A stretch of DNA of 62,399 nucleotides, filler included, from Collodictyon triciliatum (taxonomy: Eukaryota), in NCBI GenBank assembly GCA_043381765.1. It is 6 parts of 6 records of this genome, joined end to end, with 100 filler letters (N's around TTAATTAATTAA, not from the genome) between each part and the next. Parts side by side here need not be neighbours in the genome. Positions count along the whole stretch, not along the records: positions 29,210 to 43,707 come from JBHJMP010001809.1; positions 43,808 to 58,485 come from JBHJMP010001810.1; 4 more parts are not named here. One strand, given 5' to 3'. Shown piece after piece: positions 24,540 to 44,682 of the stretch; the stretch's first letter is position 1, and every line of letters begins with the position of its first letter. Under the pieces are notes generated by a model, which was not told where the DNA came from, searched no databases, and saw only the letters and a list, made by a program, of their open reading frames with translations. A program made the position numbers and the translations under genes.

Positions 24540-27500
24540 TATAATTAGAATTTTAAGTCAAATCAATATTGATTTTGATGTTGTATTTATGAAGAAAAGT
24601 CTCATGCACATGATGCAAATTAGAGTATAACAAAGCTCTTACCTTAGCTCTCTTGTAAAAGAATACACGATTTGCATAAGGATTCTCGATGAAACATGCT
24701 GCCCTTATCTAATGATGCATTAAAAACAGAATATAATCAACTCACACAATTATGATTCATTTATTTTCATCTCTATTGTGCCTTACTTATTCATGTATTA
24801 TACTTGTATATTCAACAGAATACCTCGAGCTCTGTAGCACTGGCCCCAGGATAATTGTTAACCCAAGGAAACTCTTTTTCTATTCTTTTGTTCCAATTAT
24901 TCGGTTTCTCTCTATTTGGTACCCATCCATACCTATATACGTTTAAATAAAAATTGGTATTAATTAAAGTCTTTGATGTCCCATCCATGGATATTGATAA
25001 TTAATATTTTTCTCTAGTTAATCTTTTAATTGTTACCTCGAGCCAAGCAGGCAGACAAAGTATTGTGATTTTCGGACCCTGTCCAAGCATACCAGCATAG
25101 TCTGAATGTCATTCCATGATTAGAAATGAGAGTCTGATATGCTAAAATGATATCTCGTTTATAATCATGAAAGGTATGTGTTATGATATCCAATCGATGG
25201 CATTTACATCTCCATTTTCTGTTCCCTCTGGTGGGATGCCCCATCTTAAATCGATAAATCTTAGGGTGACCCCCTTTTTCTGTGCAGCACTTGCAATACT
25301 ACCATTTTTTTGTGCGATTAAAATAAAAAACAAAAAGAAAAAGGAGAGGAAAATTTATGACGATCAAAATAATGATTTTAGATAACTCTTTACCATGGTT
25401 GGGCATATCTACAAAACTTATCTCGAACTGCAGTCATGTCTTGGAATGTCGATGACACAAAAACATTTATTTCCCTACTTTTGATCTCAGGGTTGAAGTT
25501 TACAATTTTAGTTCCTCCATAATTCCATCGGACAGTGTTGAAAGGTAATTTTAGTTTAGTGTACTGTGCTTGTTTGATTTCATGCCTGAATGACATACAT
25601 TTTACTTCCATACTGTACGGACTCCATGTATCTGGCAAAAAAGAGAATATTGAACTTATGGATATGGGTGTCATCTGATTTTCAGAGTCCAAAGCAGGTG
25701 GACTAATCAAATTGCATGTTGAGGGCCTTAGAATAGTTGATGATTCTACTTTATGTGGTTCTTGCAATTCGCTGATGCAATTTGGGCACATAATTCCTTC
25801 GGAATCACATTTCATGTTGATTCTAGGTTTTATCATTTTCTTTACAATAAAATTAACTGCCTCGAGAGAACAGCCTCGCTCATTCATAGTCTTGACAATA
25901 ATCAGGATTTTGCGAGTACTAGGCAGTCTAACGTGTTTGACTTTCTTTTTTGAATCCTATAATAAAGACTATTCAATCGTTTGATAAAATGAAATGCTTT
26001 TTTTTAAAACTTGAATAAACGATAATTTTTTTTTTAAAAAAAACATTCAAAACTTACGGGTGGCGTGTCTTCCAAAAGAAAGTGAATGAATGCCACAAAA
26101 TCATTATTTTCATTCATATATATTTCATTATTTTCCTCAGTGAAAGAGAACGGAAATATGAGGAATCTTTTGCTCAGAAACAACTCACTTGGTAACTTAT
26201 CAAATACAAGATTTATTTTTGTTACAATATCACTGATAATATGACTGATGTTGCATTTGGGAATCTCATGAGGATAATTCAGAAAGTAATGAACCGCCTC
26301 TGTAACTCTTGATAAATTGGTAACCCATGTATTTACTGGCTCTTCGTCATCCACTAGAATAGGGAATAATATTTTTTCCTCACTGATATTATAAGCCAAT
26401 CCATAATCACAAAAGAGCTCCATAATTTGCTTCGAGAATTTCTTTATTGATGACTGAGTAATGCATAGCGACAGTCTCTTTACATTTTGTACCAATTTCT
26501 CTTCAAGTAGGCTCTTGGTGAAAACACCTCTCATATCTGTTGTATTTTCTCCAGCAGGTTGAGGAACCATAGAAAAATTTAAATTAAAAACTTCTCGAAA
26601 ACATGATATCAATAATTCGGGTTGAAGGAAAATAATATCACTTATTTTTGAACTTTCCTCCATCCAAACAATAGATCCCATGTCCATCAAGAAGCGAAGA
26701 GCTGACTTTGTAGTTGCTGGGTGCATTTCATTTCGCATAACAATGTCGTTCACATCATCAATATTTACAGACACCAGGGTCTTTTTCCATACTTCCAACG
26801 TCTCCTTTAGCTGGCTGTATTTTGATGGAATATATTTCCCAATACTTGGTAACATCAGCATTTGTTTGTATATATCTTCCTTGAGATCAAACAAACCCTC
26901 TCCTGTTTGACTGCTAACCATATGATGTCCACAAAATACAATTTTTCTGTTGTAGTGATTGGAATCTCTTAATATTTTAAATTCCTTTCTGCACTGCGTT
27001 TGGACATGAATCTTTCTATCAGCACTAAATTTGTCAAGATGAGTGCCTACTATCATAATCATCACATTAGATGCAAAATAGGACACCATACTGAGCCATT
27101 GCTCCACACCTCTTAGTCTTGGAGTTTCATACATATTGTATACAATGATAGTTAAAGCATTATCAGACAGAAAAAAGGAATGGGTTGCATGGAATATATC
27201 TTGCCCTCCAAAGTCCCAGATTTTGGCTTCAATATTTTGTCTCACGCCAGCGAATTTGATTGTTTCTTTTTCTATTTCAATTCCATCTGTGTTTAGCCGA
27301 TCGGAATCCACAGTGGGTGAAAAATAGTCTTTTGATATGTTTTGCTTTAGTGACATTCGGAGCGTTGTTTTCCCAGCTTCTCCTTCACCAAGTAGCAATA
27401 TTCTACCCTCAATGTTTACTATTTTCCCTCCAACGAATGATACAAGGAAATCATATACATCTTGGGAACCTCGCTCGAGTATGTTTTTTGGAACATTCTC

Positions 27501-29109: not shown

Positions 29110-29306
29110 NNNNNNNNNNNNNNNNNNNNNNNNNNNNNNNNNNNNNNNNNNNNTTAATTAATTAANNNNNNNNNNNNNNNNNNNNNNNNNNNNNNNNNNN
29201 NNNNNNNNNATGAACCAGAACTTGGTACAAGTTACAGACAATCAACAAATCCATACTTGAATCAACTTGTAAGATTTAAATAATTATTTTTTTATAAAAC
29301 AATTAT

Positions 29307-31074
29307 TTAATAAAGAACTTGGGCGTTGTCTTTTCCGACGTCAAGAATACGTGTGTGCTCAATGATGACCCAGCAGGTATAGTCATCTACAGGGGTCAAT
29401 GACGCAAGATTTGCGGGAACTGGTGCCTCCCCAGCAGCGGTGACAACTGAAGCGTGTTTGCAAGACCCGGCAAACTGAAGTCCGACTTGTACAATTCCAG
29501 AATTTGAAGATGCGTTGTAGCCAGATAATTCAAATTCGTCAGAATAATCTGATCGAGTCATCGACCACCCTAATGCGAACAGAGTCGGAGTTTTCCAAAA
29601 GAATTCTTCACACTCAAGTGGATTTGTGTTTTTATCAGCTGTTGTATTTGCCGTGACAACCATTGCATTCTGAACGGCTTTATTGCTGGCATAATTGACG
29701 CCTGCGCCTGACCGTGGTGTAGTCAATTGAATAATTCCACTATTTGATGCGGCACCAGCATTAATTTGAAGTGGTTGAATTGCTTGTTGTGAGAAGTTGA
29801 CCTGTCCAAGCATCTCAGCACTTGTGTTATATCCCAATGCTTTCATTAAATAATTAAGAGCTTCAGGTTGCTGACACAAAGCTTGACCAACTACTGCACT
29901 TGATAAAAATCCAGACGCCGCAGCTGCCGTGCCAGTAGTATTTTGGCCAGCGGCCGGTACATTGGCATAAGCAGGATTTGCTAGCTGAATAGGAACTGAT
30001 GGTAGCACTTTACCGTTGACTGTTAGTCTTGCTTGAGAAAGTCCCTCAATTGCATGGAGTCGGTCAGTACCTAGATATCCAAGATTACCCTGTTCACAAG
30101 CTCGAGTAAAGATAAGATATATAGCATTGATATTTGAGTATTGAACACTGATGTTTTGTGTGACCCATCCTGAAGTTCTTTTTGGAATATTAAACTGAGT
30201 CATAAAATATGTTTCAATTGGAATCTGTAAATTATTATTTATTAAATATTGTGAAAGGGCATTATTATATGATGGCTCCGTTTGAATATAATTAATATTC
30301 ATTTTTAAATTACTTAAAGTATAACTAAGAGTTGTGTTAGTGCTGGCAGTAAAGTCCAAAAAGTCGAATCCGGTATTTGCTCCATAAGCTAATTGACCTT
30401 GACTAAAGCACTCTGATGCGGGCGCCATCCAAATACGAACTTCGAGACTGTTGGGACCTAGTAAATAAGCAGGCAATAAAGTTTTTATATTCATCAAACC
30501 AAGATATCTAAGCGGAAATCCAATTTGAATAGTGTTACTTTCAGTCCCTGCTGCTCCAACTAAAAACAATCTGGACCTATCAAGAACAGACTGACCTATT
30601 CCCATTCCTCCACTCATAAGATTCACCCAATTCTGGTTATTACACCAATTGTGCTTAAACGACTCAAGGTATGAATAGTTGTCGATTCTTTCCAATTCTG
30701 AGCCATTTAAGTATACTGCAATTCTATAAATAAATGATTCATAACTTTCACACGGGCACAGTATTGGCAATACTCTATTCCCTGCTGTAGCTGTGGATGC
30801 ATCGAACAGACCTCTTTTTAGATTTACGGCATTTGTAACCGTTGCGGCATCTAGTCCTTTTACAGTCAGATCCGCTATGATATGAGCAGAGTCCATTTGG
30901 ATAGACCACTCGTTGTCTATAGGCACCCGAAACACAATTTGCGGGCCTGATGAAAAATTTGCTGTTTGCTCTGTTCCGTTGCTTGGCAAAACCTGGCGTT
31001 GTTGTTTTTCAAGAATAGTTTTTTTTTTTTGACGATACATTTCTAAATTGTAGCTCCTCCGGTAGTGAATCCAT
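29307..31074 (-). CDS. Major capsid protein (double jelly-roll, PLV type); probable start at 31074 with a 1-nt shift in an A12 run
   Basis: Beta-rich 577-aa ORF next to the packaging ATPase, with QIVFRVP, SFIYRIAVYLNGSELERIDNY, LLPAYLL..LEVRI and YTLSNLKMN patterns typical of PLV MCPs. An upstream MDSLPEELQF lies in another frame. Confidence 0.78.
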
Positions 31075-31100
31075 ATTTTTAATAAGAAAATAATTTTTGT

Positions 31101-31511
31101 TTAGTAACCTATTTTATTTCGGATATTGTCTCCATGCGTATTAATGACTTTTCCCAGAGATTCATTTTGTTGACCAATTTTTCGAATTACTGGATCATAT
31201 TTTCGTAGTTGTTCGGCTCCTTTTTCAAATGGCTTTTGGAATTTACTGCCTTCGACAAGTCCTGCCACAGTTGCGCCTTTTTTTCCTTCTGCTAAATCTA
31301 AGCCTTTTTTCACGTATCCTTTATTTGCATTGTACACCTTTAATGCCTGCTCCGACAATCCACCCGTGGCTGTACGAGCCAAGTCACGCAGACCGCCACC
31401 TGTAGCCTTGTCCACTGCATTGACCACCTTTTCACCGACATTCATTCCCTTCCTTACAACTTTGACTGCTCCTTTGAAAAATTTCTTTAAACTTCTGCGT
31501 GTGAATACCAT
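31101..31511 (-). CDS. Small basic virion-associated protein with N-terminal amphipathic helix
   Basis: 136-aa ORF between ATPase and MCP; begins MVFTRRSLKKFFKGAVKVVRKG. Confidence 0.6.
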   Translation of the reverse strand: MVFTRRSLKKFFKGAVKVVRKGMNVGEKVVNAVDKATGGGLRDLARTATGGLSEQALKVYNANKGYVKKGLDLAEGKKGATVAGLVEGSKFQKPFEKGAEQLRKYDPVIRKIGQQNESLGKVINTHGDNIRNKIGY

Positions 31512-31534
31512 ATAATTATATATAAAAAAATCTA

Positions 31535-32257
31535 TTATGTAAGTTCCTCTTCAAAATTTTTAAAATAAAGTTGGGGGTTTGCATTACATACAACATACAG
31601 AAAATTATATTTTTCCGCTGTGGCATATGTATAGAACTCTTGAAATTTTTCTTCAGACAAATCTATAATATCCTCATAAATAGATTTTATCTCGTTTTTT
31701 GATTTTGACCTATACATTATAAAATGCGTAAAATTCGTTCTGTGTATTCTTTGAAAGTATGTAAACTTATGTGAAATCATAATTATACTTAGATGCAAGT
31801 GTCGAGACTTTAAAATTAATTTAGTCAGCTGGGTATGCCGGATGCTTTTCAGCTCATTGGCCAAGTCATCGATTATCAGCAGCGCTCTGAAATCCTCCTT
31901 CTCGAAATCTTCGTCACCTTCTACATCCTCCTTTATATATTCTGCTACTTCATTATTTATTGTCTGAAAAACACGCTCCTCTGAAAATTCAATTGAGTCC
32001 AGGGACTTGTCGTAGACCTTACCTTCATCAGTGACATTTGGACTACAAAAATAAATTTTATTAAATACCTCAAAATAGTGCTTTCTAATTAAATTTGCGT
32101 ATAGTGTGGTTTTACTTGAGCCTGTAGGGCCAAGGACACCCATTATAAAATTTCGAGTGGAAATATCCGGCAATGGAAACGGAATTCCAAAATCCCGAGT
32201 TTTTTTAGATTTTGTCAGTGGTGCTATCTTTATATTTGATACGCGTTTCGTATTCAT
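31535..32257 (-). CDS. A32-like (FtsK/HerA) genome packaging ATPase
   Basis: Walker A GPTGSSKT, Walker B LLIIDD, arginine-finger KSRH, IIMISH, RTN and C-terminal YNFLYV..YFKNF. Confidence 0.9.
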   Translation of the reverse strand: MNTKRVSNIKIAPLTKSKKTRDFGIPFPLPDISTRNFIMGVLGPTGSSKTTLYANLIRKHYFEVFNKIYFCSPNVTDEGKVYDKSLDSIEFSEERVFQTINNEVAEYIKEDVEGDEDFEKEDFRALLIIDDLANELKSIRHTQLTKLILKSRHLHLSIIMISHKFTYFQRIHRTNFTHFIMYRSKSKNEIKSIYEDIIDLSEEKFQEFYTYATAEKYNFLYVVCNANPQLYFKNFEEELT

Positions 32258-32278
32258 TATTATTATCTATAAAAAAGT

Positions 32279-32461
32279 ATGTACGAGCTTCTAATTTATA
32301 TAAATGAAAATTTAGTTCATCAGGGTGTATATGATGATTTGGACGATTTACAAAACTATATATATTATCTAGAAAAGTTTCATAGAAAAGAAAAAAATAA
32401 TAGAATTTATAAAATCAAGTCAAAAATGCTTGACGAAAAAATAATTGTTTCATTTAATTAG
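32279..32461 (+). CDS. Small hypothetical viral protein
   Basis: 60-aa ATG ORF that exactly fills the space between the ATPase and the left inverted repeat. Confidence 0.45.
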   Translation: MYELLIYINENLVHQGVYDDLDDLQNYIYYLEKFHRKEKNNRIYKIKSKMLDEKIIVSFN

Positions 32462-32463
32462 AA

Positions 32464-32673
32464 TTTATTCAACAACCCAAAAACCCAAAATGTCCCAAAA
32501 TGTCCCAAAATCCCAAAATTCCCCAAAAAATTTTCCAAATAGAAACCCCCTCAAGATTTTTTTTTACACAATGAAAAAAAAAATACAATGCGCGATTTTG
32601 TATTTCCCATTTTTTTTGGGATTTTTTGGGACATTATAATAAAATCTGGGACCCTCTCCCCATCCTTTTTTTT
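32464..32673 (+). repeat. Left copy of ~200-bp internal inverted repeat
   Basis: Reverse complement of 37354-37553 apart from a few substitutions and one extra TGTCCCAAAA unit. Confidence 0.95.
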
Positions 32674-32739
32674 TAATTGAGAAAACGCATAAAAGTAATT
32701 TAAAAGTAATTTAAAAAGATTTTACTAAGGTTATTTAAG

Positions 32740-35232
32740 ATGTCTTTAGCAATTGAAATACAAGTTTGCCAAGACGATATAATCGAACTCTGCAAAACAG
32801 AGCGATTTATAAGTCAACCAACAAATGTAAAAAATGCTCTGATTTTTTTTAAAAAGTCAGTTGTCGATGGTGTGGTAAAAGTTGAGTACAGTCAAAAAAA
32901 CGAGGGCCGATTTTGGGGCAAACCAGATATCAATGCGCTACCGAGATGGATTAAGCAGACACTCTTACATCAAAAATATAGTGATATTGATATATCGAAT
33001 TGTCATCCAAATATTCTTTTAAAGTTGTGTAACAAACATAACGTAAGATGTGAAGCGTTAAAATACTATTGTGAAAATCGAGACCTATGTTTGACTGAGA
33101 TAATGGATTTATACAAAATCTCTAAAGCAGATGCCAAAGACCTATTCAATATTATGAATTTTGGCGGCGGATTCAATACTTGGACTGAAGACAAAAAAAT
33201 TGTAAATGCAGTTGAATCTGAATTTATAAAGACATATTATGAAGAAGCCAAGAGAATCAAAGAACAATTTGTAATTATCCCAGATTACAAAAGATTTTTT
33301 GATATGGCCAAAAAAGAAAAAGACAACCCCTATGAAATTTTTAATAGTGGTATGGCTTTTATAATGCAACACTACGAGTCTGTTTATCTTGTCAAAGCAC
33401 TGGAACTTGTAAAAAATACAAATATGTATATCCCAGCTCACGATGGTTTTTATTTACATAAAGACCGATACAAAGCTATGGGTCTTGAAAAATTTATAAA
33501 AATGATAAATGAATATGTAGATGAGCCAGGTATTACTTTTATTCACAAAGAAATGAACGAGGCAATTGACCTCAAGACAGCGGATAAAGTAAATATTAAT
33601 TTCTGGGACTCATTTGATTTATATAATATCGCAACCGAAATTATAAAGAAAAAAACATTGACTGCTTCTAATGGTGTTTTATACATGTATAATGGTGTTT
33701 TTTGGGAAGCTGACACACCTGAAAAAAACTATTCACTATTTTCAAAATTTTGGAGTGAAAACTATTATTATGTCATTTACGATTTAATGAAACAAGCATT
33801 TGGTATAAATGAAGAGCAAAGTCAATCCAATAAAAAAATAAATAAAAAAAAAAAGGGTAAAGACTCGGCGCCAACTGAATCTGAAAAGGCTGAAAATGAA
33901 AATACAAAATCAATTGGACTACATCAAAAATCGTGGGAAAGACAATTAGCTAATTCACGTGTGTTTCATTTTAGACCTCTTGTAACGCTAGTTTTACAAA
34001 GACTCGAAAACTCGTCATTAAGGTTTAATGAAATACCTTATTTATTTGCCTTCAACAATAGAATATTTGATTTAAGAATTAATAATTTTATTGAACCAAA
34101 ACCAGAACAATATATATCCGAGACCTGTGGATATAATTATGAAAATGATGAAAATTTAGAAAATAAAAAAACTTATCTGATGTCAATATTCAAAACAATT
34201 CTACCGGAAGAATATGATCTCGAACTTTTTTTAAAATATTGCTCGACAGGTCTAAGTATGACACTCATAGAAAAAATATGTTTGGCACACGGGTCTGGAC
34301 GAAATGGCAAAGGACTATTTCAAGAATTCAACAAAATAACACTGGGAAATTATTTTTATGCATTAACTCCAACTAGTATACAGTCAAAATTAAAAGATGG
34401 TTCGAATCAAGCTTTAGCAAATATTCAGGGCAAAAGACTCATTGTAACCTCGGAGCCAGACCAAGACCAAAAAATAAATACTAGTATCCTAAAGCTACTC
34501 ACAGGCTGCTCTGTTATTAATGCCAGAGCTCTTTATTCAAAGCAAACAGACACTCAAAATTTTGGAACTTATATTTTAGAGTGTAATAGCAAACCTAAAT
34601 TAGATGTTGTCGAACAGGCTATTACACAGAGACTATTTGTAATTCATTTTCCAATAAAATTTATTGAAAAAGAAGTTTATGAAAATTTAGAAGAAAAACA
34701 AGGGTATGGAATAGTTAATCCTAAATATAAAGACTTTGATTTTTTGAAATCATATAAAATCGCATATTTTCATATTTTAGCTGATGCATATCAAAATTAT
34801 ATTAAAAATTCATCATTTTTATTACAACAAGGAAGTCGGTCACATTTAATTACAGAAACCTATTTTCAAGACTCTGATGATTTTACCAGTTGGTTTTACA
34901 CAAATTATAAAAAAGTTGAAACTGATGATGAAATATTAATTTCTTTATCTGATTTAAGAAAAGAATATATAGATTATAAAAGACAATTTGAATTTAAATT
35001 TGAAATAAAAATTGGAACATTTTACGAAAAAATGGCATCGTGTCCTATGCTTTGTAGATTCATAAAACATAGAGATACATATTATAAAGGGCAAAAATTA
35101 AAAAAGCCTACGATTATTGGACACATAAAATTGAATTCGCAAGAAAAAGAAGATGTTGAAATGGAAAATGAAATAGGACAAGAACCTCTTAAATGTGAAG
35201 AATCAAAACCACATTTTGATTTCAAAAAATAA
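32740..35232 (+). CDS. PolA-like polymerase/primase (TVpol) fused to D5-like SF3 helicase
   Basis: PolA-like motifs DIDISNCHPNIL (A), AKDLFNIMNFGG (B) and PAHDG (C). D5 N-terminal FAFNNRIFDL, Walker A GSGRNGKG, Walker B IVTSE, motif C LECN, RLFVIHF. Confidence 0.87.
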   Translation: MSLAIEIQVCQDDIIELCKTERFISQPTNVKNALIFFKKSVVDGVVKVEYSQKNEGRFWGKPDINALPRWIKQTLLHQKYSDIDISNCHPNILLKLCNKHNVRCEALKYYCENRDLCLTEIMDLYKISKADAKDLFNIMNFGGGFNTWTEDKKIVNAVESEFIKTYYEEAKRIKEQFVIIPDYKRFFDMAKKEKDNPYEIFNSGMAFIMQHYESVYLVKALELVKNTNMYIPAHDGFYLHKDRYKAMGLEKFIKMINEYVDEPGITFIHKEMNEAIDLKTADKVNINFWDSFDLYNIATEIIKKKTLTASNGVLYMYNGVFWEADTPEKNYSLFSKFWSENYYYVIYDLMKQAFGINEEQSQSNKKINKKKKGKDSAPTESEKAENENTKSIGLHQKSWERQLANSRVFHFRPLVTLVLQRLENSSLRFNEIPYLFAFNNRIFDLRINNFIEPKPEQYISETCGYNYENDENLENKKTYLMSIFKTILPEEYDLELFLKYCSTGLSMTLIEKICLAHGSGRNGKGLFQEFNKITLGNYFYALTPTSIQSKLKDGSNQALANIQGKRLIVTSEPDQDQKINTSILKLLTGCSVINARALYSKQTDTQNFGTYILECNSKPKLDVVEQAITQRLFVIHFPIKFIEKEVYENLEEKQGYGIVNPKYKDFDFLKSYKIAYFHILADAYQNYIKNSSFLLQQGSRSHLITETYFQDSDDFTSWFYTNYKKVETDDEILISLSDLRKEYIDYKRQFEFKFEIKIGTFYEKMASCPMLCRFIKHRDTYYKGQKLKKPTIIGHIKLNSQEKEDVEMENEIGQEPLKCEESKPHFDFKK

Positions 35233-35499
35233 AAAAAATAAATTGATTTTTATCAAAACAATTTATTTATCTTTAACCAGTTCTCGTTCTCGTTTTATTT
35301 TCCTCCGTTCTGCATATTTTGGGTTGTAAGCGTCTGCATATTGTTTTTTCTTTTTCCATACTTCGACAATGTGTTTAATTTTATCTGATTGAAATCCAAA
35401 TTCTGTCAGGCATCGAAGCTCAAATTGAGGGTCCATTATTATATTCTCTTATAAAAATCTTTTTAAGCCCTATTTAAAAACAATTTGCTGTAGATAATT

Positions 35500-35982
35500 A
35501 TGGCTCCAAAAATCACGCAAGAAATCAAAGACAAACTACCTGAGGACTATAGTTCAGCTGATTGGGAACCTATCGATCCAGAAGATATTCAAGTAGGTGA
35601 TTACATTGCATATGTTGCTAAGGCCCGAAAATATATGTCTGGAAAAGAGGATGCTGGTGGATGGAAGAAAGGAGGATTGATAAATGCTATTCCAAATATG
35701 GACGAACAAATGCGACGCAAGGCAAACAATGATAAGGTGTTTTTCTTCAGGGCTTACGCTGTTCAATGGTCTGTTAACCAAGACAATGTATTGATGTTTT
35801 TCAAGTCAAAGAAAGACGTCGATGAGGTTTTAGCCAAGGGAAGGAAACGAGCCAGGGATACCAAAGAAGAAGGACGAATTAACAAACTGAAATTTGACAC
35901 TGAAAAACTGGAGGAGCAACTCGAGCAAGTCAGCAAGGAAGAAAAGAAGCCTGCACGCCGCGGCCGACCACCCAAAAAATAA
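35500..35982 (+). CDS. Hypothetical protein with C-terminal AT-hook (RRGRPPKK)
   Basis: 160-aa ORF with a core GDYIAY...KKGG...WSV and an RGRP motif at the extreme C-terminus. Confidence 0.65.
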   Translation: MAPKITQEIKDKLPEDYSSADWEPIDPEDIQVGDYIAYVAKARKYMSGKEDAGGWKKGGLINAIPNMDEQMRRKANNDKVFFFRAYAVQWSVNQDNVLMFFKSKKDVDEVLAKGRKRARDTKEEGRINKLKFDTEKLEEQLEQVSKEEKKPARRGRPPKK

Positions 35983-35990
35983 AATTACCT

Positions 35991-37196
35991 CTACAACTTA
36001 TTTCTTCGAGCAGCCCGTTCAGCCCGACTATTTTTTTGATTTTCTGATGTCTCTTTATTAAATCTAAATAAATCTGATTCTAGTAGACCACTAGCGCCTT
36101 TCATCTGTCTACCTTTATTATTTTTTAAAAATTCATCCAAGTCGTCCTGTTCAGCAAATTCACTTAGTAATTGCGATTTTGGTTTAAATTTTTCAACTTT
36201 GGTATCTTCTGAAAGAAGCAGCAAGTCCGCACGACCAAACTTTTTATTTTCTAAATTATCTGTTGTTTCGAGGGTATAATATGGAAGTTGCCATTGTGAG
36301 CTTGGTGTACTTTTTTTTTTAATTTTATAAACTTCGAAAGACCACTTGGGTAGATATCCCTTCTGTTTTTTAATTTTATTTTTCATACTTGCCGGAATAT
36401 CAGTTTTTTCTAAAAGCACTCTGACTTTGTTACCAGGCTCTAGGTCTTTTAATGAGCCCTGTTCTCTTTTTTTGGAGTTGTAATTTTCCATATTTTTAAT
36501 TATTTGTTCCTTGTATTCGGGAAGTAATGCAACAGCAGGGGCTACTTTTGTGTTTTTGTTGGGCTGTAGATTCAGACTGTCCAGAAAACTCTGTAGGTCT
36601 GGAATGGGGTCGTTTCCAGTTTTTTGTTTATATCCGTAAAGCGCTCGTTTCAGGGTGCCATTTTTGCGTTCTATTTGACTTTGACTCGTGGGTGTTGCCG
36701 ACTTGCTTTTAACGTGAGTTATATTTTGTTTTTCTAGTAGTGAGGCCACTTGGTCTTTAAATTCATTACCGTTGTCTGACTGTATTGTTTTAACCAATTT
36801 ATAAGAATTAATAAATTTTCGAAGTTGCTCAGCGACATCACTGGCTTTTAATGATTCGAGTGGATACGCCCATAATTTGCGTGTGTATATATCTGTACAA
36901 GTTAAAAGATAATTTGCATCTTCACTGTCTAGATTTTTTATATCGATAGTGTCAATTTGGACATATCCAGGCTCGAACCGCATAATTGTATTTGTGTTTT
37001 TAGATTTTACCGGTCTTTGTAAAATTTGCCAGTCTGGTTGAGACCTAATAAACTTATCAACATACGAACGAGTAATACCAAATTCACGCACTGCTCTAAA
37101 CAGACCGTCTCGAGAATTAGTATGTTTTGGTGATTTATAAAATACCTCGTTAATCTTGGCTTGCCATTCGTTTCTTGGGAGGATTTTCGTTTCCAT
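35991..37196 (-). CDS. Retroviral-type (rve, DDE) integrase, Polinton-like
   Basis: Catalytic triad in QIDTID, SDNGNEF and QIERKNGTLK. Also DIYTRKLWAYPL, a Polinton-like N-terminus (FY..P...LF......ITRSYVDKFIRSQ..WQ) and C-terminal KWSFEVYKI. Confidence 0.92.
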   Translation of the reverse strand: METKILPRNEWQAKINEVFYKSPKHTNSRDGLFRAVREFGITRSYVDKFIRSQPDWQILQRPVKSKNTNTIMRFEPGYVQIDTIDIKNLDSEDANYLLTCTDIYTRKLWAYPLESLKASDVAEQLRKFINSYKLVKTIQSDNGNEFKDQVASLLEKQNITHVKSKSATPTSQSQIERKNGTLKRALYGYKQKTGNDPIPDLQSFLDSLNLQPNKNTKVAPAVALLPEYKEQIIKNMENYNSKKREQGSLKDLEPGNKVRVLLEKTDIPASMKNKIKKQKGYLPKWSFEVYKIKKKSTPSSQWQLPYYTLETTDNLENKKFGRADLLLLSEDTKVEKFKPKSQLLSEFAEQDDLDEFLKNNKGRQMKGASGLLESDLFRFNKETSENQKNSRAERAARRNKL

Positions 37197-37341
37197 TTCT
37201 TAATTTTTCTTTAGATAATAATCTACGTTCGATAAAGTGGTGGACAGTGCTGGCAAATGGCTCAACTTCCTTTGAGTAATCGAGTTTTTTCACTTTTTTT
37301 TTCTTTTCAACTTTTGATTTTTTATATTGTTTTTGTTTCAT
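37150..37341 (-). CDS. Small lysine-rich protein upstream of and overlapping the integrase
   Basis: MKQKQYKKSKVEKKKK...; the ATG lies immediately inside the right inverted repeat. Confidence 0.4.
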   Translation of the reverse strand: MKQKQYKKSKVEKKKKVKKLDYSKEVEPFASTVHHFIERRLLSKEKLRNGNENPPKKRMASQD

Positions 37342-37353
37342 AATTGTATATAG

Positions 37354-37553
37354 AAAAAAAAGGATGGGGTGAGGGTCCCAGATTTTATTATAATGTCCCA
37401 AAAAATCCCAAAAAAAATGGGAAATACAAAATCGCGCATTGTATTTTTTTTTTCACTGTGTAAAAAAAAATCTTGAGGGGGTTTCTATTTGGAAAAATTT
37501 TTGGGGAATTTTGGGATTTTGGGACATTTTGGGATTTTGGGTTGTTGGATAAA
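37354..37553 (-). repeat. Right copy of ~200-bp internal inverted repeat
   Basis: Reverse complement of 32464-32673. Confidence 0.95.
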
Positions 37554-37569
37554 ATTTCTTGGTGACATT

Positions 37570-40500
37570 ATGGGTAAAAAAGATATCAAAACTCCTATCA
37601 AAACTCCTAGTAAAACAACACCAGGTAAAGTATATACTGGAAGTGCTGTAAGAACACGAATGGCAGAAGAAAAACAACAAGAAGAATATGCAAAATTAAG
37701 AGAATCTCAAAGGCAAGAAAGAGAAGCTGAAGAACGATTAAAAAAGTCTATAAGTGAACAAGACTATCGACAACAGTATTTCGAAGATTATTTTGAAAGA
37801 TCATTGAAAGGTAATATATACGATGCCAAGGGGGGGCAAATTAGTAATTTTGGGGATTTTTTTGTTGCTTTGGCAACAATGAAAACTTCAACAAAACGTC
37901 TTAATTTTCAACCAAAAACAAATGAATTTTTAAAGAGTGGAATAATAAAAGATATGTTGGTTAATTTGGTACCTGAAGAATCCAAGAGTGCGTTTGATAA
38001 GGTACCTTGGACAATAAACACAATATGGCACGTTTTTAATGCAACTCCAATAAAAAAACTAGGTAATGAAATAACATTTACTACAGACCAAGAAACGAAT
38101 GACGTTTGGTTTAATGAAATGAAAGAGTTAGCAAAACAACAAAGTAGAGGGGCTACACCGACTTTATCACGCAGACCATCTGCTGTAGCTGAATCTGCTA
38201 ATGTAAAAATGGAAATTCCGTCAGCAGACCAAATGAGTCGAATGCTTGCTGGCACAAAAAGTAGGCCAGGCAAAGCACCAGTCGAAGCTCCTTCGGCTTC
38301 GCAACCAACTAAATCACCTCGAAAATCACCAGTTAAACCCGCTTTCCCCCCAACTCTTGACCCAAATACTGGGATAGATACTAGAAATCCAACACCTACA
38401 AAATCACCTCGAAAATCACCTGTGAAACCCGCTTTTCCTCCAACTCTTGATCCAAATACTGGGATAGATACTAGAAATCCAACACCTAAAAAGTCACCAG
38501 CTCCACCAGCCAAATCACCCGCAAAATCAACTCCAAAAACGCCAGTTAAACCTGCTTTCCCTCCAACCCTCGATCCAAATACTGGTATAGATACCAGACT
38601 TGCTACACCCGGAAAATCACCTGTTGAATTATTAAAAGCCAAACTAGATCAAATAACAAAAGAAAAAGTTAAGGAATTTAAGGATGAAATATCAAAAATA
38701 AGCCCACAAGTCAAAGTAGATAGTCCAACTCAACAAACAGAAATTCCACTTAGTAGAAGAATACTAGAATCAGAAACACCTGCAGGTAAAGCAAGGCAAA
38801 AAAAAGTTGAAGAAGCGAAAAAAAAAATGGCAGAGGGCTCACCACCTCAAACAAATATATGGTCACCACCTAAATCTGATTCTCCAATTAAAGTTGACAC
38901 AAGTCCACCAAAGAGCGCAAGCCCAAAACCTATAACATTACCAAAACCCAAATCACCAGTCAAAGATGTTATTGAGCCATTTAAACATTTTACTCCCACC
39001 AAAGAACAAGAAAAAAGTCCAGTTGTTGAAAAAGTTATTGCTGAATTGCCTGTAGATGAATTGCCAAAAAGATACACTCCATCAGTATATAAATCCAAAT
39101 TATATAATGATTACAGACAGCATTTAATGGATTTATGGATAAAAGATGCAACTCGTTATTATTCAACAACACCAAGACCAAGTATTGTTAGTTTTCTAGA
39201 ATTTTTAAATTCATTTTTAGCATTAAAAACTGATGTTGATGACAGAGTAGCTACTCAAAAATTTAATATAAAAAAATCGAGATTTTTATTAAACGATTTT
39301 TCACAATTATTTTTTCACAAGGCTTTTGGGATAAGAATGCCTGATATTGATAATGAAGAAGATATTGTTGACGATGATTTGGTTATGGATCTTAATCCAC
39401 TTGTATTAAATAAAGAATCATTAAAGCCTCTTGTAATTGAACGATTTATAAATTATTTAACTGAAATTACCCCGATGCAAAAAGTGCGAAATAGAAATAT
39501 AGCTGCAGAAAGAGAAGCAGCCATTGAAAAACCACCAGAGGTTCAACCAAAAAAAAAACCAATATTAACAGATCTTGAATTAGAAATTGCACAAAAAACA
39601 GGAGAAAAAATTAAAAAGGCTCGAGAGCTTGCAGAAAAAAAAGCTGAAGAAGAAAGATTAGAACAACAGGCTAAAGAAGAAAGAATTAGAAGAATGGCAG
39701 AACAACAAAGAGAAGCTGAACGAGAAGCCGTGAGAGCAAGAGACCAAGCAGAGCGCGATGAAAGAGAAGCATTTTTAAAAATACCAATTTTTAGTAGATA
39801 TTTATATAATGAAGATGAGGATTTATATACTTTTATTAGTGAATTTGACATAAAAAAAGATATAGAAAGATTAAGCGCTCGTAATAGAATAAAATTTTTG
39901 ACAATATGGTATGATGAATTTGCAAAGGTATTGTATCACTTAAAATATGATGTTACTCGAGATAATTTAGGTTGGAATTATTCAACTTTAGATATTATAA
40001 ATAATGAAGAAGACTATAATAAATTTAAAAATATTTATCAAAGAGTATTTCAAGAAATTAATGAAAAATATGATGTTTCACCTATAGGAAAAGTATTTAA
40101 TATATCCAAACTTGAATTAGATATTATAAAAGAAATTAATCAAGATATGTTAAATCAAAGTCAAGAAAGATTTAACACTCAAGATGATACTAGTGATGTA
40201 TCAATGAAAGATAAAACTATTCAAGGAGAATCATATGATGAAGAATTAAATATTACCAGTAATATTACATTTGATTTAAAATATGATATAAACACATATT
40301 TTGATGATGATGAACAAAAAATAATAAATATGATTCATAATCCAAATACCTCATACCTTGATGTTTTTGTAAATGATGAAAATAATCAAAGAGCAATGAA
40401 AAAAATGTCTTATGATTTAATCATACGGGTTAAAAGACTAATAGAAAGTTATACAGATAAATTATATAAAAAAATTAATCCAAATAATTATAAGATTGGA

Positions 40501-40860
40501 AAGTCTATAACATTTAATTTAGATAAAAAAAATACAATTATATTTTTGAGCGCATATGCAATTTTATGTTCTCAATTATCTAGTAATTACGATGATTTAA
40601 ATCAATCGATTAAATTATGGCTTTTGGCAATTAAAAATTATAATCAAAAAATAAATCAAATATATGATAGTGTTCAACCAAGTGAATTTGATTTGAAACA
40701 AACAGCAGTTAATGAGTCTATAAATGAATTAACTCCAATTCAAAAACGACAATTTAATCAGGTGATTAGGCAAACGGCAGCCCCAATAAATCAAAATAAA
40801 TATTTATATATTATTTGGTTGGATAATCAAAAAACGCGGTATATTGGAATAACAAAATAA
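37570..40860 (+). CDS. Large S/T-P-x-K-rich, coiled-coil hypothetical viral protein (~1096 aa)
   Basis: First ATG at 37570 (the TTG start at 37489 lies inside the IR). Internal 30-aa repeats KSPRKSPVKPAFPPTLDPNTGIDTR. Confidence 0.8.
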   Translation: MGKKDIKTPIKTPSKTTPGKVYTGSAVRTRMAEEKQQEEYAKLRESQRQEREAEERLKKSISEQDYRQQYFEDYFERSLKGNIYDAKGGQISNFGDFFVALATMKTSTKRLNFQPKTNEFLKSGIIKDMLVNLVPEESKSAFDKVPWTINTIWHVFNATPIKKLGNEITFTTDQETNDVWFNEMKELAKQQSRGATPTLSRRPSAVAESANVKMEIPSADQMSRMLAGTKSRPGKAPVEAPSASQPTKSPRKSPVKPAFPPTLDPNTGIDTRNPTPTKSPRKSPVKPAFPPTLDPNTGIDTRNPTPKKSPAPPAKSPAKSTPKTPVKPAFPPTLDPNTGIDTRLATPGKSPVELLKAKLDQITKEKVKEFKDEISKISPQVKVDSPTQQTEIPLSRRILESETPAGKARQKKVEEAKKKMAEGSPPQTNIWSPPKSDSPIKVDTSPPKSASPKPITLPKPKSPVKDVIEPFKHFTPTKEQEKSPVVEKVIAELPVDELPKRYTPSVYKSKLYNDYRQHLMDLWIKDATRYYSTTPRPSIVSFLEFLNSFLALKTDVDDRVATQKFNIKKSRFLLNDFSQLFFHKAFGIRMPDIDNEEDIVDDDLVMDLNPLVLNKESLKPLVIERFINYLTEITPMQKVRNRNIAAEREAAIEKPPEVQPKKKPILTDLELEIAQKTGEKIKKARELAEKKAEEERLEQQAKEERIRRMAEQQREAEREAVRARDQAERDEREAFLKIPIFSRYLYNEDEDLYTFISEFDIKKDIERLSARNRIKFLTIWYDEFAKVLYHLKYDVTRDNLGWNYSTLDIINNEEDYNKFKNIYQRVFQEINEKYDVSPIGKVFNISKLELDIIKEINQDMLNQSQERFNTQDDTSDVSMKDKTIQGESYDEELNITSNITFDLKYDINTYFDDDEQKIINMIHNPNTSYLDVFVNDENNQRAMKKMSYDLIIRVKRLIESYTDKLYKKINPNNYKIGKSITFNLDKKNTIIFLSAYAILCSQLSSNYDDLNQSIKLWLLAIKNYNQKINQIYDSVQPSEFDLKQTAVNESINELTPIQKRQFNQVIRQTAAPINQNKYLYIIWLDNQKTRYIGITK
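38308..38598 (+). repeat. Coding 90-bp tandem repeat (2 full copies plus 1 partial)
   Basis: Visible at DNA and protein level; differences between the full copies are mostly synonymous. Confidence 0.9.
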
Positions 40861-40876
40861 TTTTATTTACATTTAT

Positions 40877-42322
40877 ATGGCACCAAAACAAAGACAAAAA
40901 AATCCTGATGCATTCAAAGAAAGGCAAGCAAGAAATAGAGCTCAGGGTACTACACCAGCTAGGACTGTTGCAGAAGTGGCTCAACAACAGAGTCCATTCG
41001 TAGGATTTGCTCAATTACAACCGGCTCCAGTTAGTTCAAATTCAACTTCACCGCAAGTAGTACCTACACCCGCTAGAAAACCAATGTCAAGAGTAGGTTC
41101 TCCAATGGATCTAATGGGTACATTTTTTGTTAGTGACGATGATATCTTTGCTTCTTCTTCATTGCCTCGACCCCCAGGGCCTCCACCTACGAGTCCTCCA
41201 TTCCAGAGTCCTTTACCCGGTCAGCAAATATTTGGACCCGCATCAGCTGTTCCAATGGCTACAATTCTAAACACTGCTCAAAATCCAGACACAAATCAAA
41301 ATTTATTTACATTTGGGTCACCTGCAAGACAACCTGGAATAAATGACCCATTAAGAATAAGTCCAGCTAGACCTAGTTCAGTTAAAAGTCCAGGTGTAGC
41401 AGGTGCTGTTCCTCCTTTTGCTAGATATCAACCGACAATAGCAGAGGTAAATTCTCCATCGGTAAGAAAAGCTAGAGAACTTGGAGCTACAGAAAAATCA
41501 CCAGCCTCGGCCGCAGATTCACCATCTACTCCAGTAGAAGCACCAAAACTAAACAGAGCGGAAAGAAGAGCCAAAGCAAGAGCAGAAAGAGAAGAAGCAG
41601 ACCGTATATTGGCAGAATCATTGGAAAGAGATTTAAACACAGCACAAACTATTAATGTAGGTAGTATATATGAATCTGCCCGAGAGCCACCAGGTGGAGA
41701 CCCTGATGACCCAGAAGTGGGTGTTGGACAAGGTGGGCCTGCTATTGAGTTAAATCTAAATGAATTTACAAAAGCAATAGCAAACGGTTTTAGATTGGCC
41801 CAGGGTGACTTATATTCTATGGCATCAACCGAGCCAGGTGATTATACATCAAATACAAAAAGCGCAGCTGTTACAGATTTTTATGCCAAAATAGATCCAG
41901 GTATGCCAACTGAACAACGTAGGAGTATAATATTAGAAGAATTTAATAATATTGGAGCTGTTTATGCTGCTTCTCCAAATGAAACTAATATGGATTTACT
42001 TAGGCGCCTAGATTTTGTTAGAAAAATGCAAATTCAAAATCAAGCATTTGCCGATTATCGAAATGGTATTAGTCGTATAGAACCAGGATTTACACCAACA
42101 TCAATGTTTACAAATGAAAAAATACTGGGTACAGCTTTTAATGGAAGTCCCACATCAAAAGTTGTTAGATTTACAAATGGTATTTCGGAAATAAAAATAA
42201 TAGGGGACGGCAATGGTCGATATTATGGAGTACAATCTGGAAAAAGATTTGGCCCTAGAAAATTTGATGAGATAGAACGCTGGGCATCATTAGGTGGATT
42301 TGAAGCAGATGAATTGAAATAA
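40877..42322 (+). CDS. Pro/Ser-rich hypothetical viral protein (481 aa)
   Basis: Long intact ORF 16 nt after the previous stop. Confidence 0.75.
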   Translation: MAPKQRQKNPDAFKERQARNRAQGTTPARTVAEVAQQQSPFVGFAQLQPAPVSSNSTSPQVVPTPARKPMSRVGSPMDLMGTFFVSDDDIFASSSLPRPPGPPPTSPPFQSPLPGQQIFGPASAVPMATILNTAQNPDTNQNLFTFGSPARQPGINDPLRISPARPSSVKSPGVAGAVPPFARYQPTIAEVNSPSVRKARELGATEKSPASAADSPSTPVEAPKLNRAERRAKARAEREEADRILAESLERDLNTAQTINVGSIYESAREPPGGDPDDPEVGVGQGGPAIELNLNEFTKAIANGFRLAQGDLYSMASTEPGDYTSNTKSAAVTDFYAKIDPGMPTEQRRSIILEEFNNIGAVYAASPNETNMDLLRRLDFVRKMQIQNQAFADYRNGISRIEPGFTPTSMFTNEKILGTAFNGSPTSKVVRFTNGISEIKIIGDGNGRYYGVQSGKRFGPRKFDEIERWASLGGFEADELK

Positions 42323-42377
42323 TTAAAAAATTATATGAAAGTGCTAGTCAATCCTCATTTATTGAAAACTGTTGTAT

Positions 42378-42869
42378 TCAAGGCACGGAAATTGTAACAT
42401 TATAAAAATTATCAACCATTTGTTTCCTAAATGCCACAGCGTCTTCAATATTTTGAAAATATTTTTTATGATATGTATATTTAGCAGTACAATAACTAAC
42501 TTGAAATTTTCCATTTTTTTTAATTTTTGAAATACCTCCATAGTTTGTATTTGAATTAAATTTTATACGATTACGTGCATTCATTGATTGATTAACCCAT
42601 CGCAAATTAGTAGAATTATTATTTAATTTATTACCGTCAATGTGATCAATTATATTGTATAATTCAGGACAAGGGTTCGAGACGTGTACAATGGCTACAA
42701 GTCTATGTATCAAATAATATTTTTTACATAATTGAATTTGTTTATAACCCTTGTTGTGTTTTTGAGTTTTTAAAATTGAAAGTTTGTTATTTCTTACATT
42801 TCCAAAAGTACTTATCTCATATTGAGCACAAAAGGGAATAGGTTTATATAATTCTTCATTTAAAGACAT
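42378..42869 (-). CDS. NUMOD4 - HNH endonuclease with AP2-like C-terminus
   Basis: YEISTFGNVRN (NUMOD4), IHRLVA, IDHIDGNKLNNNSTNLRWV (HNH), GISKIKKNGKFQVS...YFQNIEDAVAFR (AP2-like). Confidence 0.88.
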   Translation of the reverse strand: MSLNEELYKPIPFCAQYEISTFGNVRNNKLSILKTQKHNKGYKQIQLCKKYYLIHRLVAIVHVSNPCPELYNIIDHIDGNKLNNNSTNLRWVNQSMNARNRIKFNSNTNYGGISKIKKNGKFQVSYCTAKYTYHKKYFQNIEDAVAFRKQMVDNFYNVTISVP

Positions 42870-42909
42870 TATACTAACTTATATAAATACCTTTAAGTAT
42901 CTTTGCAAG

Positions 42910-43320
42910 ATGACTACACAAACATTTCAAATTACTACCAATGATTACAGCGTCAAAATTCAATATGATGGTCAATTAATTGGTCCATTTACCAAACTTG
43001 AAATTCGCTTCATAAAAGAAGATGTGAAAAACATTAAAGTTGAATGGGATGGCCTGAATCTCAAGATGATAGTTGGGAGGAAAACTGAAACATTTACAAC
43101 TGATGCGTTTAGCTGTTTTTCTGCACATCTAAGATATGATGTCGAGGATAATTACCAAGGCCACCTGGATGCTACTCTTAGCTGTCTTTTTTTGGTTATG
43201 AGGCCTGAGGACTCTCCTAATAGAAGAGCGTGGCTTTTCGCGAGAGAAGAGCTAAAACCATTACTGGTTAGTCTGCTCTGCTATATTCTCAAGCGTCACC
43301 AAGATGATATACAACAATAA
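42910..43320 (+). CDS. Hypothetical viral protein (136 aa)
   Basis: Intact ATG ORF divergent from the HNH gene. Confidence 0.6.
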   Translation: MTTQTFQITTNDYSVKIQYDGQLIGPFTKLEIRFIKEDVKNIKVEWDGLNLKMIVGRKTETFTTDAFSCFSAHLRYDVEDNYQGHLDATLSCLFLVMRPEDSPNRRAWLFAREELKPLLVSLLCYILKRHQDDIQQ

Positions 43321-43355
43321 ACTGACACCACAAAATAAATTTTTTTCAATTTTTA

Positions 43356-43548
43356 TATTCCACATTTGGTATATAAAAATTTATTATTCCACATTTGGTA
43401 TGAATTAAATTATTTATATTCCACATTTGGTATGAATGCAGGGAAATAAGTATTAGGTCAGTCGTCGAGAATTAGGGCGAGGTACCGTACTCGCCATATA
43501 TGGTATGAATGCAGGGAAAGAAGTTATCGGTCAGTCATCGAGAAATAG
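43356..43548. repeat. Sub-terminal direct repeats of the viral element
   Basis: TATTCCACATTTGGTAT at 43356, 43385 and 43417. A ~48-bp unit TGGTATGAATGCAGGGAAA...GGTCAGTCRTCGAGAA at 43428 and 43501, separated by a GGCGAG...CTCGCC hairpin. Confidence 0.9.
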
Positions 43549-43560
43549 AAAAAGGACGTA

Positions 43561-43608
43561 AAGTGACATAATTATATTATTAATATTAATAATATAATTA
43601 TGTCACTT
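43561..43608. repeat. Perfect 48-bp palindrome
   Basis: AAGTGACATAATTATATTATTAAT|ATTAATAATATAATTATGTCACTT; the two 24-nt halves are exact reverse complements. Confidence 0.97.
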
Positions 43609-44682
43609 GCCACCTGTGCCCAGTAGGAACACACAACCCATCAGCCGGTCAAACATCTTGCCTTATTTGCGAAGCAGGAACATATAGTCCATCCGTTGGC
43701 TTAAGCANNNNNNNNNNNNNNNNNNNNNNNNNNNNNNNNNNNNNNNNNNNNTTAATTAATTAANNNNNNNNNNNNNNNNNNNNNNNNNNNNNNNNNNNNN
43801 NNNNNNNTGTTTTATTTTATTGTTTTATTTTATTGTTTTATTTTATTGTTTTATTTTATTGTTTTATTTTATTGTTTTATTTTTCCCTGCACTTTTCATG
43901 TTCTACGAAACGAAATATCCGCGTACCCATTCGTTCATTTTTAAAATGTTATTACATGATATATTCATATCTAATTTACCTCCAATCCCACACCCCAGGG
44001 CCCCAGAAACAGAATGGTTATCTGCCAGTCGCGACAACTGCCATTGAGGGCGGCCATGAAGAGTACGGCCAGGGTGCTTCTTCACCAGAACATGTGCTTT
44101 CAGCCGACTCCGCCCAATCTCGCCTTGCATAGTGATGTAAGCCTACGAATCCCTCTCTTCTACTACCAGGATTCTTTCGCTTCTGTTCGGCATCGTGGTT
44201 GCATTCCGACGGTTGAGACATGCTCATATTCGAAAAAGACAACCCTATCTCGAGTCCTGACCTGCTTGTGGGGCCCAAGCAAATTAATAAACCCATACAT
44301 CTGCATATGACCCGGTTGTGCGGTATCATTATCAAGGGTCAGGCAAGGAAGAGGAAGAGAGAATGGGACAATAAATCACCACAGCGCGACTTGGAATGCT
44401 ATTATAAATCTACTAACAGTATGGGGAATGTAAGATCAAGTGCCGTTTTTTCATGCTTCGCTTTGGCTTTTTCACATTACCTTGCTGTCCACACGCTTAC
44501 AAGGCTGCTTTCCGGGTCACCTCAAAAATTGTGATCCTCATAGGTGTATTTTCCTTTCAGTCGCTCACAACCAAACACGATGATAATAATTATAATAAAA
44601 ATAAATAAAAAAAGCACCTCAAGCTCAAGCTTAAACACCGGACAGGAAAGGGAGGAAAAAACCGGAGAAAAGAAACAGAGTC

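Follow-up and report, generated by a model that had tools for sequence, protein, structure and literature searches.

An inverted repeat brackets the replicase and integrase genes of a probable polinton-like virus in the Collodictyon triciliatum assembly

Polinton-like viruses (PLVs) belong to the most numerous DNA viruses of aquatic protists, and their replication genes reshuffle against their capsid genes. How might such reshuffling be laid out in the DNA itself? The question is raised by one contig of the assembly GCA_043381765.1, deposited under Collodictyon triciliatum. The window, by which we mean the whole stretch of 62,399 nucleotides (nt) that was analysed, is made of six contigs of this one assembly and is not a single chromosomal stretch; artificial spacers separate the contigs, and those at 29110-29209 and 43708-43807 each consist of 44 N, TTAATTAATTAA and another 44 N. 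Positions 29210-43707 are exactly one whole contig (JBHJMP010001809.1; 14,498 nt, 33.5% G+C) with 13 open reading frames (ORFs) that lack internal stops in the standard code, one of which, of 57 amino acids (aa), was read by eye. ORFs of at least 100 aa cover about 89% of this contig and 22-47% of the four other contigs of the window that contain such ORFs.

A preliminary description had read the contig as a PLV, and this reading is borne out, as a PLV-type morphogenetic module, a TVpol-type polymerase fused to a superfamily 3 (SF3) helicase and an rve integrase were all found; family and fold searches confirmed every gene that the description had named. The contig almost certainly comes from a PLV, and it probably represents most of the genome of one in an uncharacterised freshwater lineage. 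The description had not reported a 197-nt inverted repeat with arms 97% identical, which encloses the replicase and the integrase. In our preferred reading, to which we give a probability of roughly 0.6, the contig belongs to a PLV with an exchangeable replicase-integrase segment set between iteron-type arms.

The replicase-integrase segment and its relatives

The arms and the features between them are as follows.

32477-32673, no strand: left arm of the inverted repeat (repeat search; alignment)
32740-35232, plus strand: replicase of 830 aa, with a TVpol-type family-A polymerase (residues 1 to about 280), D5_N and SF3 helicase (Pfam, AlphaFold2 [AF2], Foldseek)
35263-35436, minus strand: ORF of 57 aa in the gap 3' of the polymerase gene (read by eye)
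35500-35982, plus strand: protein of 160 aa with a basic C-terminal RGRP tail, AT-hook-like by eye (no Pfam family)
35991-37196, minus strand: rve (DDE) integrase of 401 aa with D82, D141 and E176 (Pfam, Protein Data Bank [PDB], alignment)
37354-37548, no strand: right arm of the same repeat, matching its partner at 191 of 197 positions

Fainter similarity between the arms continues outward to about 32460 and about 37559; a single additional unit of 10 nt is present in the left arm. The 4.7 kb between the arms hold the polymerase-helicase gene, the two small ORFs and the integrase gene; outside them lie the block of ATPase and major capsid protein (MCP) genes on one side and the genes for proteins of 1096 and 481 aa on the other. 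In each arm CCCAAAA units 8-10 nt apart form an array, accompanied by inverted copies, around a short palindrome with a GC centre; the left arm has six direct copies and two that are inverted, and 15 of the 22 CCCAAAA copies on the contig are found inside the two arms. Pattern scans of IMG/VR returned no relatives of the repeat core.

We propose that the arms are putative iteron-type, origin-like binding sites for the replicase encoded between them, or for the AT-hook-like 160-aa protein. Homology between the arms would let the module invert, or swap between PLV backbones by recombination, and the virus would circulate as particles while being able to integrate through its own integrase. That the arms function as origins is a tentative suggestion, which we would place a little below even odds. 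The nearest analogy for such a function would be the repeats of phage P4 that are bound by its primase-helicase.

The preliminary description had recognised a polymerase with PolA motifs fused to an SF3 helicase, and both halves of the protein were identified. The C-terminal half contains D5_N and DUF5906 domains (Pfam) of a D5-like SF3 helicase and matches poxvirus D5/E5 (1e-11) and African swine fever virus (ASFV) C962R (6e-8). While the N-terminal 310 aa have no Pfam match, they retrieved 2,788 cluster representatives at E<=0.001, 602 of them at E<=1e-10. An AF2 model of the polymerase domain built on 88 aligned sequences (predicted local distance difference test [pLDDT] 93.6, predicted template modelling score [pTM] 0.88) matched family-A DNA polymerases in all of the best 50 Foldseek rows, with Klenow at the top (9.7e-6, TMq 0.53). 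A VIA-align all-against-representatives search gave Z scores of 14.7 for DNA polymerase theta and 14.4 for Klenow over residues 1-274, followed by T7-type and mitochondrial RNA polymerases. Eight residues (R57, D84, R114, K133, E213, D235, G236 and K270) are invariant in the 88 polymerase sequences, and we take them to belong to polymerase motifs A, B and C. The same helicase domains follow downstream in all ten TVpol relatives sampled (Pfam). In the phage collection the polymerase matched phage helicases only, at less than 25% identity, and pattern scans of IMG/VR found no relatives of the polymerase.

The integrase, which had been described as an intact DDE enzyme, matches Pfam rve at 3.5e-11 and retroviral integrase cores in the PDB (prototype foamy virus integrase, 1.3e-4), and its D82, D141 and E176 are invariant across 21 aligned sequences. 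Judged from these residues, the enzyme is plausibly catalytically competent. No chromodomain was detected in it, and no relatives were found in GTDB genomes.

The evidence that the segment is exchangeable comes from relatives in metagenomes. Parts of the sequence occur in 20 public runs from 13 studies, all of them metagenomes of freshwater, subsurface, wetland and wastewater; there was no organism-labelled run and no RNA run among the sequencing runs listed as containing it. Four public runs, here called X1-X4, were aligned to the contig, and relatives carry labels of the form L0xx or P0xxx in this analysis. Contigs of X1 tile 29210-43707 at about 96-99.6% identity. The bracketed segment is the best-conserved part in the four runs: it shows 20 differences in 4,813 nt in X1, and in X4 it is 97.6-98.5% identical at a depth of about 20, where the MCP region (at >=90% identity) has a depth of 0.8-8. 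In each of these runs, contig breakpoints are concentrated at 35161-35252, where the polymerase gene ends.

The closest polymerase homolog, P0023, has 97% identity; for the MCP homolog P0006 the figure is 73%. The longest contig given for each is 24,938 nt, and jgi and lgn are the sources in both cases. Among polymerase homologs identity falls from 80% directly to 37% or less, as in a narrow family; it ranges from 92% to 59% for MCP homologs and from 100% to 37% for those of the integrase. A second relative, L005, has the order MCP, 144-aa ORF, ATPase, 63-aa ORF and then a TVpol-S3H gene. Its ATPase and MCP are 87.5% and 68% identical to those of the contig, and its polymerase aligns with the contig polymerase only over 73 aa (37%) and 109 aa (28%). 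The intergenic region of L005 contains neither an arm nor a CCCAAAA array. Because a 97% identical polymerase appears to be paired with a 73% identical capsid protein, and because L005 carries a distant TVpol at the same position, the replicase appears from these comparisons to be a mosaic component that is exchangeable among related PLV backbones.

The bracketed layout recurs elsewhere. TVpol relatives are encoded at 294 IMG/VR loci; in 80 of these we looked for inverted repeats on either side of the gene, and such repeats bracket the TVpol gene in four of the 80, L061, L026 and L039 among them. In L061, a PLV-like contig of 19 kb, inverted repeats of 260 nt (92% identical) bracket 5.9 kb (region 5959-12362) with a TVpol-S3H gene only 27% identical to that of our contig and four unassigned ORFs; the contig also has an A32 ATPase and a collagen-like fibre gene. 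The L061 arms hold 12 of the 15 TGTAATG copies of the locus, in both orientations, so that L061 is the same design with a different repeat word. L062, a 6.3-kb contig of a different sample, matches L061 6000-12322 at 100% identity and has its ends within the two arms, which fits either a repeat-induced assembly break or a free form. In L026 (50-111 and 3209-3271) and L039 (9308-9371 and 12031-12095), repeats of 63-65 nt hug the TVpol-S3H gene alone, and each of the L026 copies is a hairpin palindrome. Non-terminal repeats that bracket replicase modules have also been described, and such modules proposed to be mobile, partly autonomous and transpoviron-like, in the relevant part of a recent account (bioRxiv 10.64898/2026.10.13.758929), in which DDE integrases are consistently paired with the family-B DNA polymerase that is primed by a protein (pPolB) and not consistently with PolA.

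The present contig is a clean case, with one replicase, one integrase and two near-identical iteron arrays exactly at the edges of the module, and the second, unrelated TVpol module with iteron arms of its own in L061 suggests a general design. The bracketed layout may help such viruses swap replication genes. A bolder version would hold that iteron-rich inverted repeat pairs are at once cognate origins and recombination ends, and that the unit of arm, replicase (with or without integrase) and arm is a semi-autonomous replicon that moves between PLV backbones, each replicase lineage having its own repeat word (CCCAAAA here, TGTAATG in L061). We regard this version as quite unlikely; if true, it would give a sequence-level mechanism for replicase turnover across these viruses.

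Objections and alternative explanations

Several observations count against the reading of the contig as a PLV with an exchangeable segment between iteron-type arms. Binding at the arms, origin firing and recombination between them are each inferred from sequence, and an arm folded as single-stranded DNA is only modestly more stable than its shuffles (z -2.35). The repeat core (32500-32606 and 37421-37517) has a depth of 34.6 in X1 against 9.65 for unique sequence, and of 56 against about 20 in X4, which is 2.8-3.6 times the unique depth (X4 and X1, respectively) and above the expectation for two copies. As two copies per genome do not explain this depth, further copies of the core are possible at the unassembled termini or in co-occurring relatives or elements. 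The Logan contigs of all four aligned runs break inside the arms, and the orientation of the segment is that given by the original assembler. Other objections concern the evidence for exchange. P0023 and P0006 appear to lie on one contig, solely from the equal figure of 24,938 nt and the shared sources, and no integrase homolog with a 24,938-nt contig was found among the matches listed. Polymerase and integrase may therefore not travel together. In addition, purifying selection alone could explain the higher conservation of the segment.

A further point of this kind supports a different account of the arms. They fill the two divergent intergenic regions of the contig, as would be expected if they were a duplicated promoter region. 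This explanation is possible, and it is compatible with the preferred one.

Next to be weighed is whether the copy at hand is integrated. The preliminary description had called the element endogenous, and in that case the contig would be an intact endogenous PLV, inserted by its rve integrase into the eukaryote genome represented by the surrounding contigs. The other contigs of the window do look eukaryotic, with scaffold gaps, a (TG)n run, WD40 and Roc-COR genes and low ORF density, and the integrase triad is intact. Two small neighbouring contigs also carry decayed PLV-like genes. One of them (58586-60409) has at 58697-59213 a decayed A32 ATPase that is 30-32% identical to the PLV ATPase, in two frames and without the N-terminal Walker A part; the other (60510-62399) has at 60601-61029 a stretch with three in-frame stops that shares 26% identity with the ORF third downstream of the MCP gene in L002 and L003 (E 2e-6 to 8e-6). 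The last 99 nt of the PLV contig (50.5% G+C), which follow a perfect 48-nt palindrome, could be flanking DNA.

However, the contig shows no host junction, no pair of terminal inverted repeats (TIRs) and no target-site duplication (TSD), and its left end lies within a viral gene. Each of the 20 runs with the sequence bears a metagenome label and none the label of an organism, the assembly could itself have been binned from a metagenome, and sequence of 95-99.6% identity occurs in samples of four studies, as expected for a circulating virus. The term endogenous is thus not sustained, and we consider integration of this copy rather unlikely. For annotation the case is a caution: the presence of a virus contig in a eukaryote assembly or bin should not be taken as evidence that the virus has integrated.

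Some further features of the neighbouring contigs were recorded. The contig at 14601-29109, of eukaryote type, has long single-exon ORFs of WD40 (16095-17585) and Roc-COR (26034-27356) type, and its (TG)n run is broken by a 22-N gap at 24466-24487. The contig at 58586-60409 has 42% G+C and contains an open ORF fragment (60076-60409) that is penton-like by eye and has no family match.

Less probable still is a transposon nested in the PLV, in which the repeat-bounded 5.1-kb segment would be self-replicating, with the arms as its TIRs and a TVpol-helicase and rve integrase of its own. The arms bound exactly the replicase and the integrase; a 100% identical integrase lies on a contig of 4,813 nt, which is the span between the arms, and an 80% identical polymerase on one of 5,063 nt. 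The 6.3-kb contig L062 likewise equals the bracketed segment of L061 in another sample, and transpoviron-like mobility has been proposed for such modules in the account cited above (bioRxiv 10.64898/2026.10.13.758929). Short contigs of this kind are, however, expected from repeat-induced assembly breaks, and L062 ends in the arms. By eye, no TSD was seen at the arm edges, and the similarity of the arms fades gradually outward without a sharp edge. L005 has a TVpol-S3H gene at the same position and in the same orientation without any arm, which argues that the replicase slot belongs to the backbone. Nor is a second replicase seen on the contig, the joints listed include no junction of an "empty site", and the relative with the 97% identical polymerase shows no matching integrase among the matches listed. 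We judge the nested transposon improbable.

An assembly artefact in the repeat or in the joining of the three parts, that is, a chimera of two entities that share the repeat, would accord with the elevated depth of the core, with the orientation known from the original assembler alone and with the inability of short-read graphs to phase repeats longer than the word size, but it is very improbable, because independent assemblies again show each of the four junctions between arm and flank (X1 records 3, 4 and 5; X2 record 15), depth is similar over the three parts in X1, X2 and X3, L005 independently has the replicase beside the ATPase, and L061 is a separate example of the layout in one 19-kb contig.

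Capsid, packaging and other genes

The remaining features of the contig, outside the bracketed segment, are these.

29210-29281, plus strand: 3' end of a gene cut by the left end of the contig, converging on the MCP gene (blastn similarity to relatives; frame read by eye)
29307-31040, minus strand: MCP, double jelly-roll, 577 aa as called (homologs, AF2, Foldseek against PDB and BFVD)
31101-31511, minus strand: basic protein of 136 aa, function unassigned (69-94% identity in relatives; no Pfam match above cut-off)
31535-32257, minus strand: A32-type genome-packaging ATPase of 240 aa (Pfam Pox_A32; 87.5% identical to the L005 ATPase)
32279-32461, plus strand: ORF of 60 aa (position kept in L005, 42% identity)
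37570-40860, plus strand: protein of 1096 aa with proline-rich tandem repeats, 90-nt unit at 38304-38621 (no Pfam or PDB match)
40877-42322, plus strand: protein of 481 aa with a Pro/Ser-rich N-terminal half (no usable Atlas match)
42378-42869, minus strand: NUMOD4 and HNH_3 endonuclease of homing-endonuclease type, 163 aa (Pfam, phrog_59)
42910-43320, plus strand: ORF of 136 aa (ORF call; Pfam scan)
43348-43608, no strand: non-coding repeat region with three 32-nt repeats, two 55-nt repeats and a perfect 48-nt palindrome at 43561-43608 (repeat search)
43609-43707, no strand: tail of 99 nt with 50.5% G+C, against a contig mean of 33.5% (base composition)

The MCP has 19 homologs of 59-92% identity from metagenome sources, three labelled "hypothetical protein" and the rest nameless. 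Its sequence gave no match in Pfam, PHROG or PDB sequence searches, and no relatives were found in IMG/VR by pattern scans, in GTDB genomes or in the phage collection. An AF2 model on the homolog alignment (pLDDT 59, pTM 0.66) nevertheless identifies the MCP-like gene of the preliminary description as a double jelly-roll protein, the fold whose absence had been named as grounds for rejecting the PLV reading. In the PDB, Foldseek matched it to the capsid proteins of Singapore grouper iridovirus (7e-13), Paramecium bursaria chlorella virus 1 (Vp54, 1e-11), mavirus (1e-11) and Sputnik (3e-10), and also to ASFV p72. In BFVD there were 100 matches at E<=0.001, and among the best 50 nearly all are capsid proteins; the matches include nucleocytovirus MCPs, a Qinghai Lake virophage MCP and a Tetraselmis viridis virus S1 protein. 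The A32 ATPase was likewise verified, with a Pox_A32 match of 7.5e-15 and 55.5 bits (cut-off 22.8).

The element had been called apparently intact, and in one respect it is not. Of 18 full-length MCP homologs, 17 start with MDSLPEELQFRN and the 18th differs at one residue; the corresponding first 12 codons lie upstream of the called MCP gene (about 31041-31075) in another frame, and the frame changes inside a run of 12 A. This single break near the 5' end could be a true lesion of the gene, or the assembly could be in error in the homopolymer.

The left end had been described as missing, and the contig is indeed cut inside a viral gene, with relatives having at least three further genes past the MCP. 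Similarity by blastn to L002, L003, L004 and L006 reaches 29239-29247 and takes in the 3' end of an L002 ORF of 170 aa (2251-2763, minus strand), which is convergent on the MCP gene there. Of the two further ORFs that follow this one in L002, the one of 291 aa, two genes past the MCP, is a penton lead and no more: in the Atlas it is similar to the DUF5901 and Sputnik V18/19 penton clusters (0.97-0.98). No penton (minor capsid) protein was recognised by Pfam or Atlas among the ORFs of this incomplete contig. Because the left end is cut within a gene and the penton lead of L002 lies beyond the corresponding point, the penton gene probably lies past the left end. PLV genomes are about 14-40 kb with TIRs or a circular map, and no repeat joins the two ends of the contig. 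At the right end, 43348-43707 could mark the end of the genome or a junction, or could be a region for packaging or origin function, and the 99-nt tail may be viral terminal sequence or flanking DNA. The single-strand fold of the right-end region has a z of -4.18.

As the preliminary description had noted, neither a pPolB nor a protease is visible; neither family was found by Pfam (E<=0.1 for protease) in the 10 ORFs scanned of this incomplete contig. The HNH gene was assigned more closely, to NUMOD4 and HNH_3 (8.7e-07 and 1.2e-08) and to phrog_59 (4e-29). Within the 1096-aa ORF, 38304-38621 consists of about three copies of a 90-nt coding repeat that specify a proline-rich peptide unit, and run X4 contains length variants there, one omitting 18 nt and a joint stepping back 96 nt. 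The giant-virus promoter words AAAATTGA and TCTA have no consistent placement upstream of the genes of the contig, which speaks neither for nor against a dependence on giant viruses. There were no Rfam matches and no tRNAs in scans of the window.

Comparison with known systems

The combination of genes had been thought possibly undescribed, a claim that does not stand beside the surveys of PLVs. In the part of the 2015 survey that concerns integrases (PMC4642659), an rve integrase in a PLV was a single exception, and later surveys report rve widely in PLVs (PMC10120064; bioRxiv 10.64898/2026.06.19.733378; PMC12220804). The described elements include some in which pPolB or a primase/polymerase-helicase is accompanied by either a tyrosine recombinase or an rve integrase (PMC10120064; bioRxiv 10.64898/2026.06.19.733378). 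Since primase/polymerase-helicase and rve are thus already paired in PLVs, TVpol with rve is within their known range, though uncommon: as tabulated for cryptophyte PLVs, rve is present in only 2 of the 298 members of cluster C1, in which TVpol-S3H dominates (PMC12220804). Consistent with this rarity, an rve-type integrase was found by profile in none of the 80 IMG/VR TVpol loci within the flanks fetched, and Pfam rve in none of three complete TVpol-bearing IMG/VR records.

The contig resembles PLVs of the PgVV/TVS/YSL type, as described in the 2015 survey and its successors (Yutin et al. 2015, PMC4642659; PMC7805220; PMC10120064; PMC12220804), in its double jelly-roll MCP and A32 ATPase. It also shares with PLVs the lack of a visible protease, a small genome and patchy accessory genes, homing-type HNH endonucleases being reported in PLVs as well. 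It differs from them in its rve integrase, in the internal inverted repeat around replicase and integrase, and in that no penton gene was recognised on the contig. Mavericks/Polintons and mavirus-type virophages have in common with it the rve integrase, the A32 ATPase, the double jelly-roll MCP and the expected life style of a virus stage with integration. In contrast to theirs, the replicase of the contig belongs to family A and is not a protein-primed PolB, and no adenain-like protease was seen in the 10 ORFs. Mavericks/Polintons also have long TIRs and, where they join the host, a TSD of 5-6 bp. The integrase differs in its lack of a chromodomain from that of the IMG/VR relative L007, which has one.

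For the arms, satellite phage P4 offers an analogy of mechanism only. Its iteron sites ori and crr, kilobases apart, flank the gene of the alpha primase-helicase, so that a D5-like primase-helicase has repeats at two sites around its own gene. However, P4 is a bacterial element without capsid genes of its own, and its sites are not long inverted repeats.

Sputnik-type virophages share the TVpol-S3H replicase, an architecture that the 2015 survey describes for PgVV, some PLVs and Sputnik (PMC4642659), and the MCPs of Sputnik and of Qinghai Lake virophage match the MCP model of the contig at E 3e-10 to 3e-12. They differ in having a tyrosine recombinase, where the contig has rve, and a cysteine protease. 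The closest precedent for the layout is given by the repeat-bracketed modules of Polisuviricotina (Barth, Ha and Aylward 2026, bioRxiv 10.64898/2026.10.13.758929), in which, as that account presents them, non-terminal repeats bracket replication genes apart from the morphogenetic module, and replicase and capsid modules reassort. Those modules occur in genomes with more than one replicase class, whereas in our contig a PolA-type replicase is the only one seen. Further differences are the pairing of this replicase with an rve integrase and arms that consist of iteron arrays. What the contig contributes to this comparison is a clean, iteron-bearing, repeat-bracketed replicase-integrase module.

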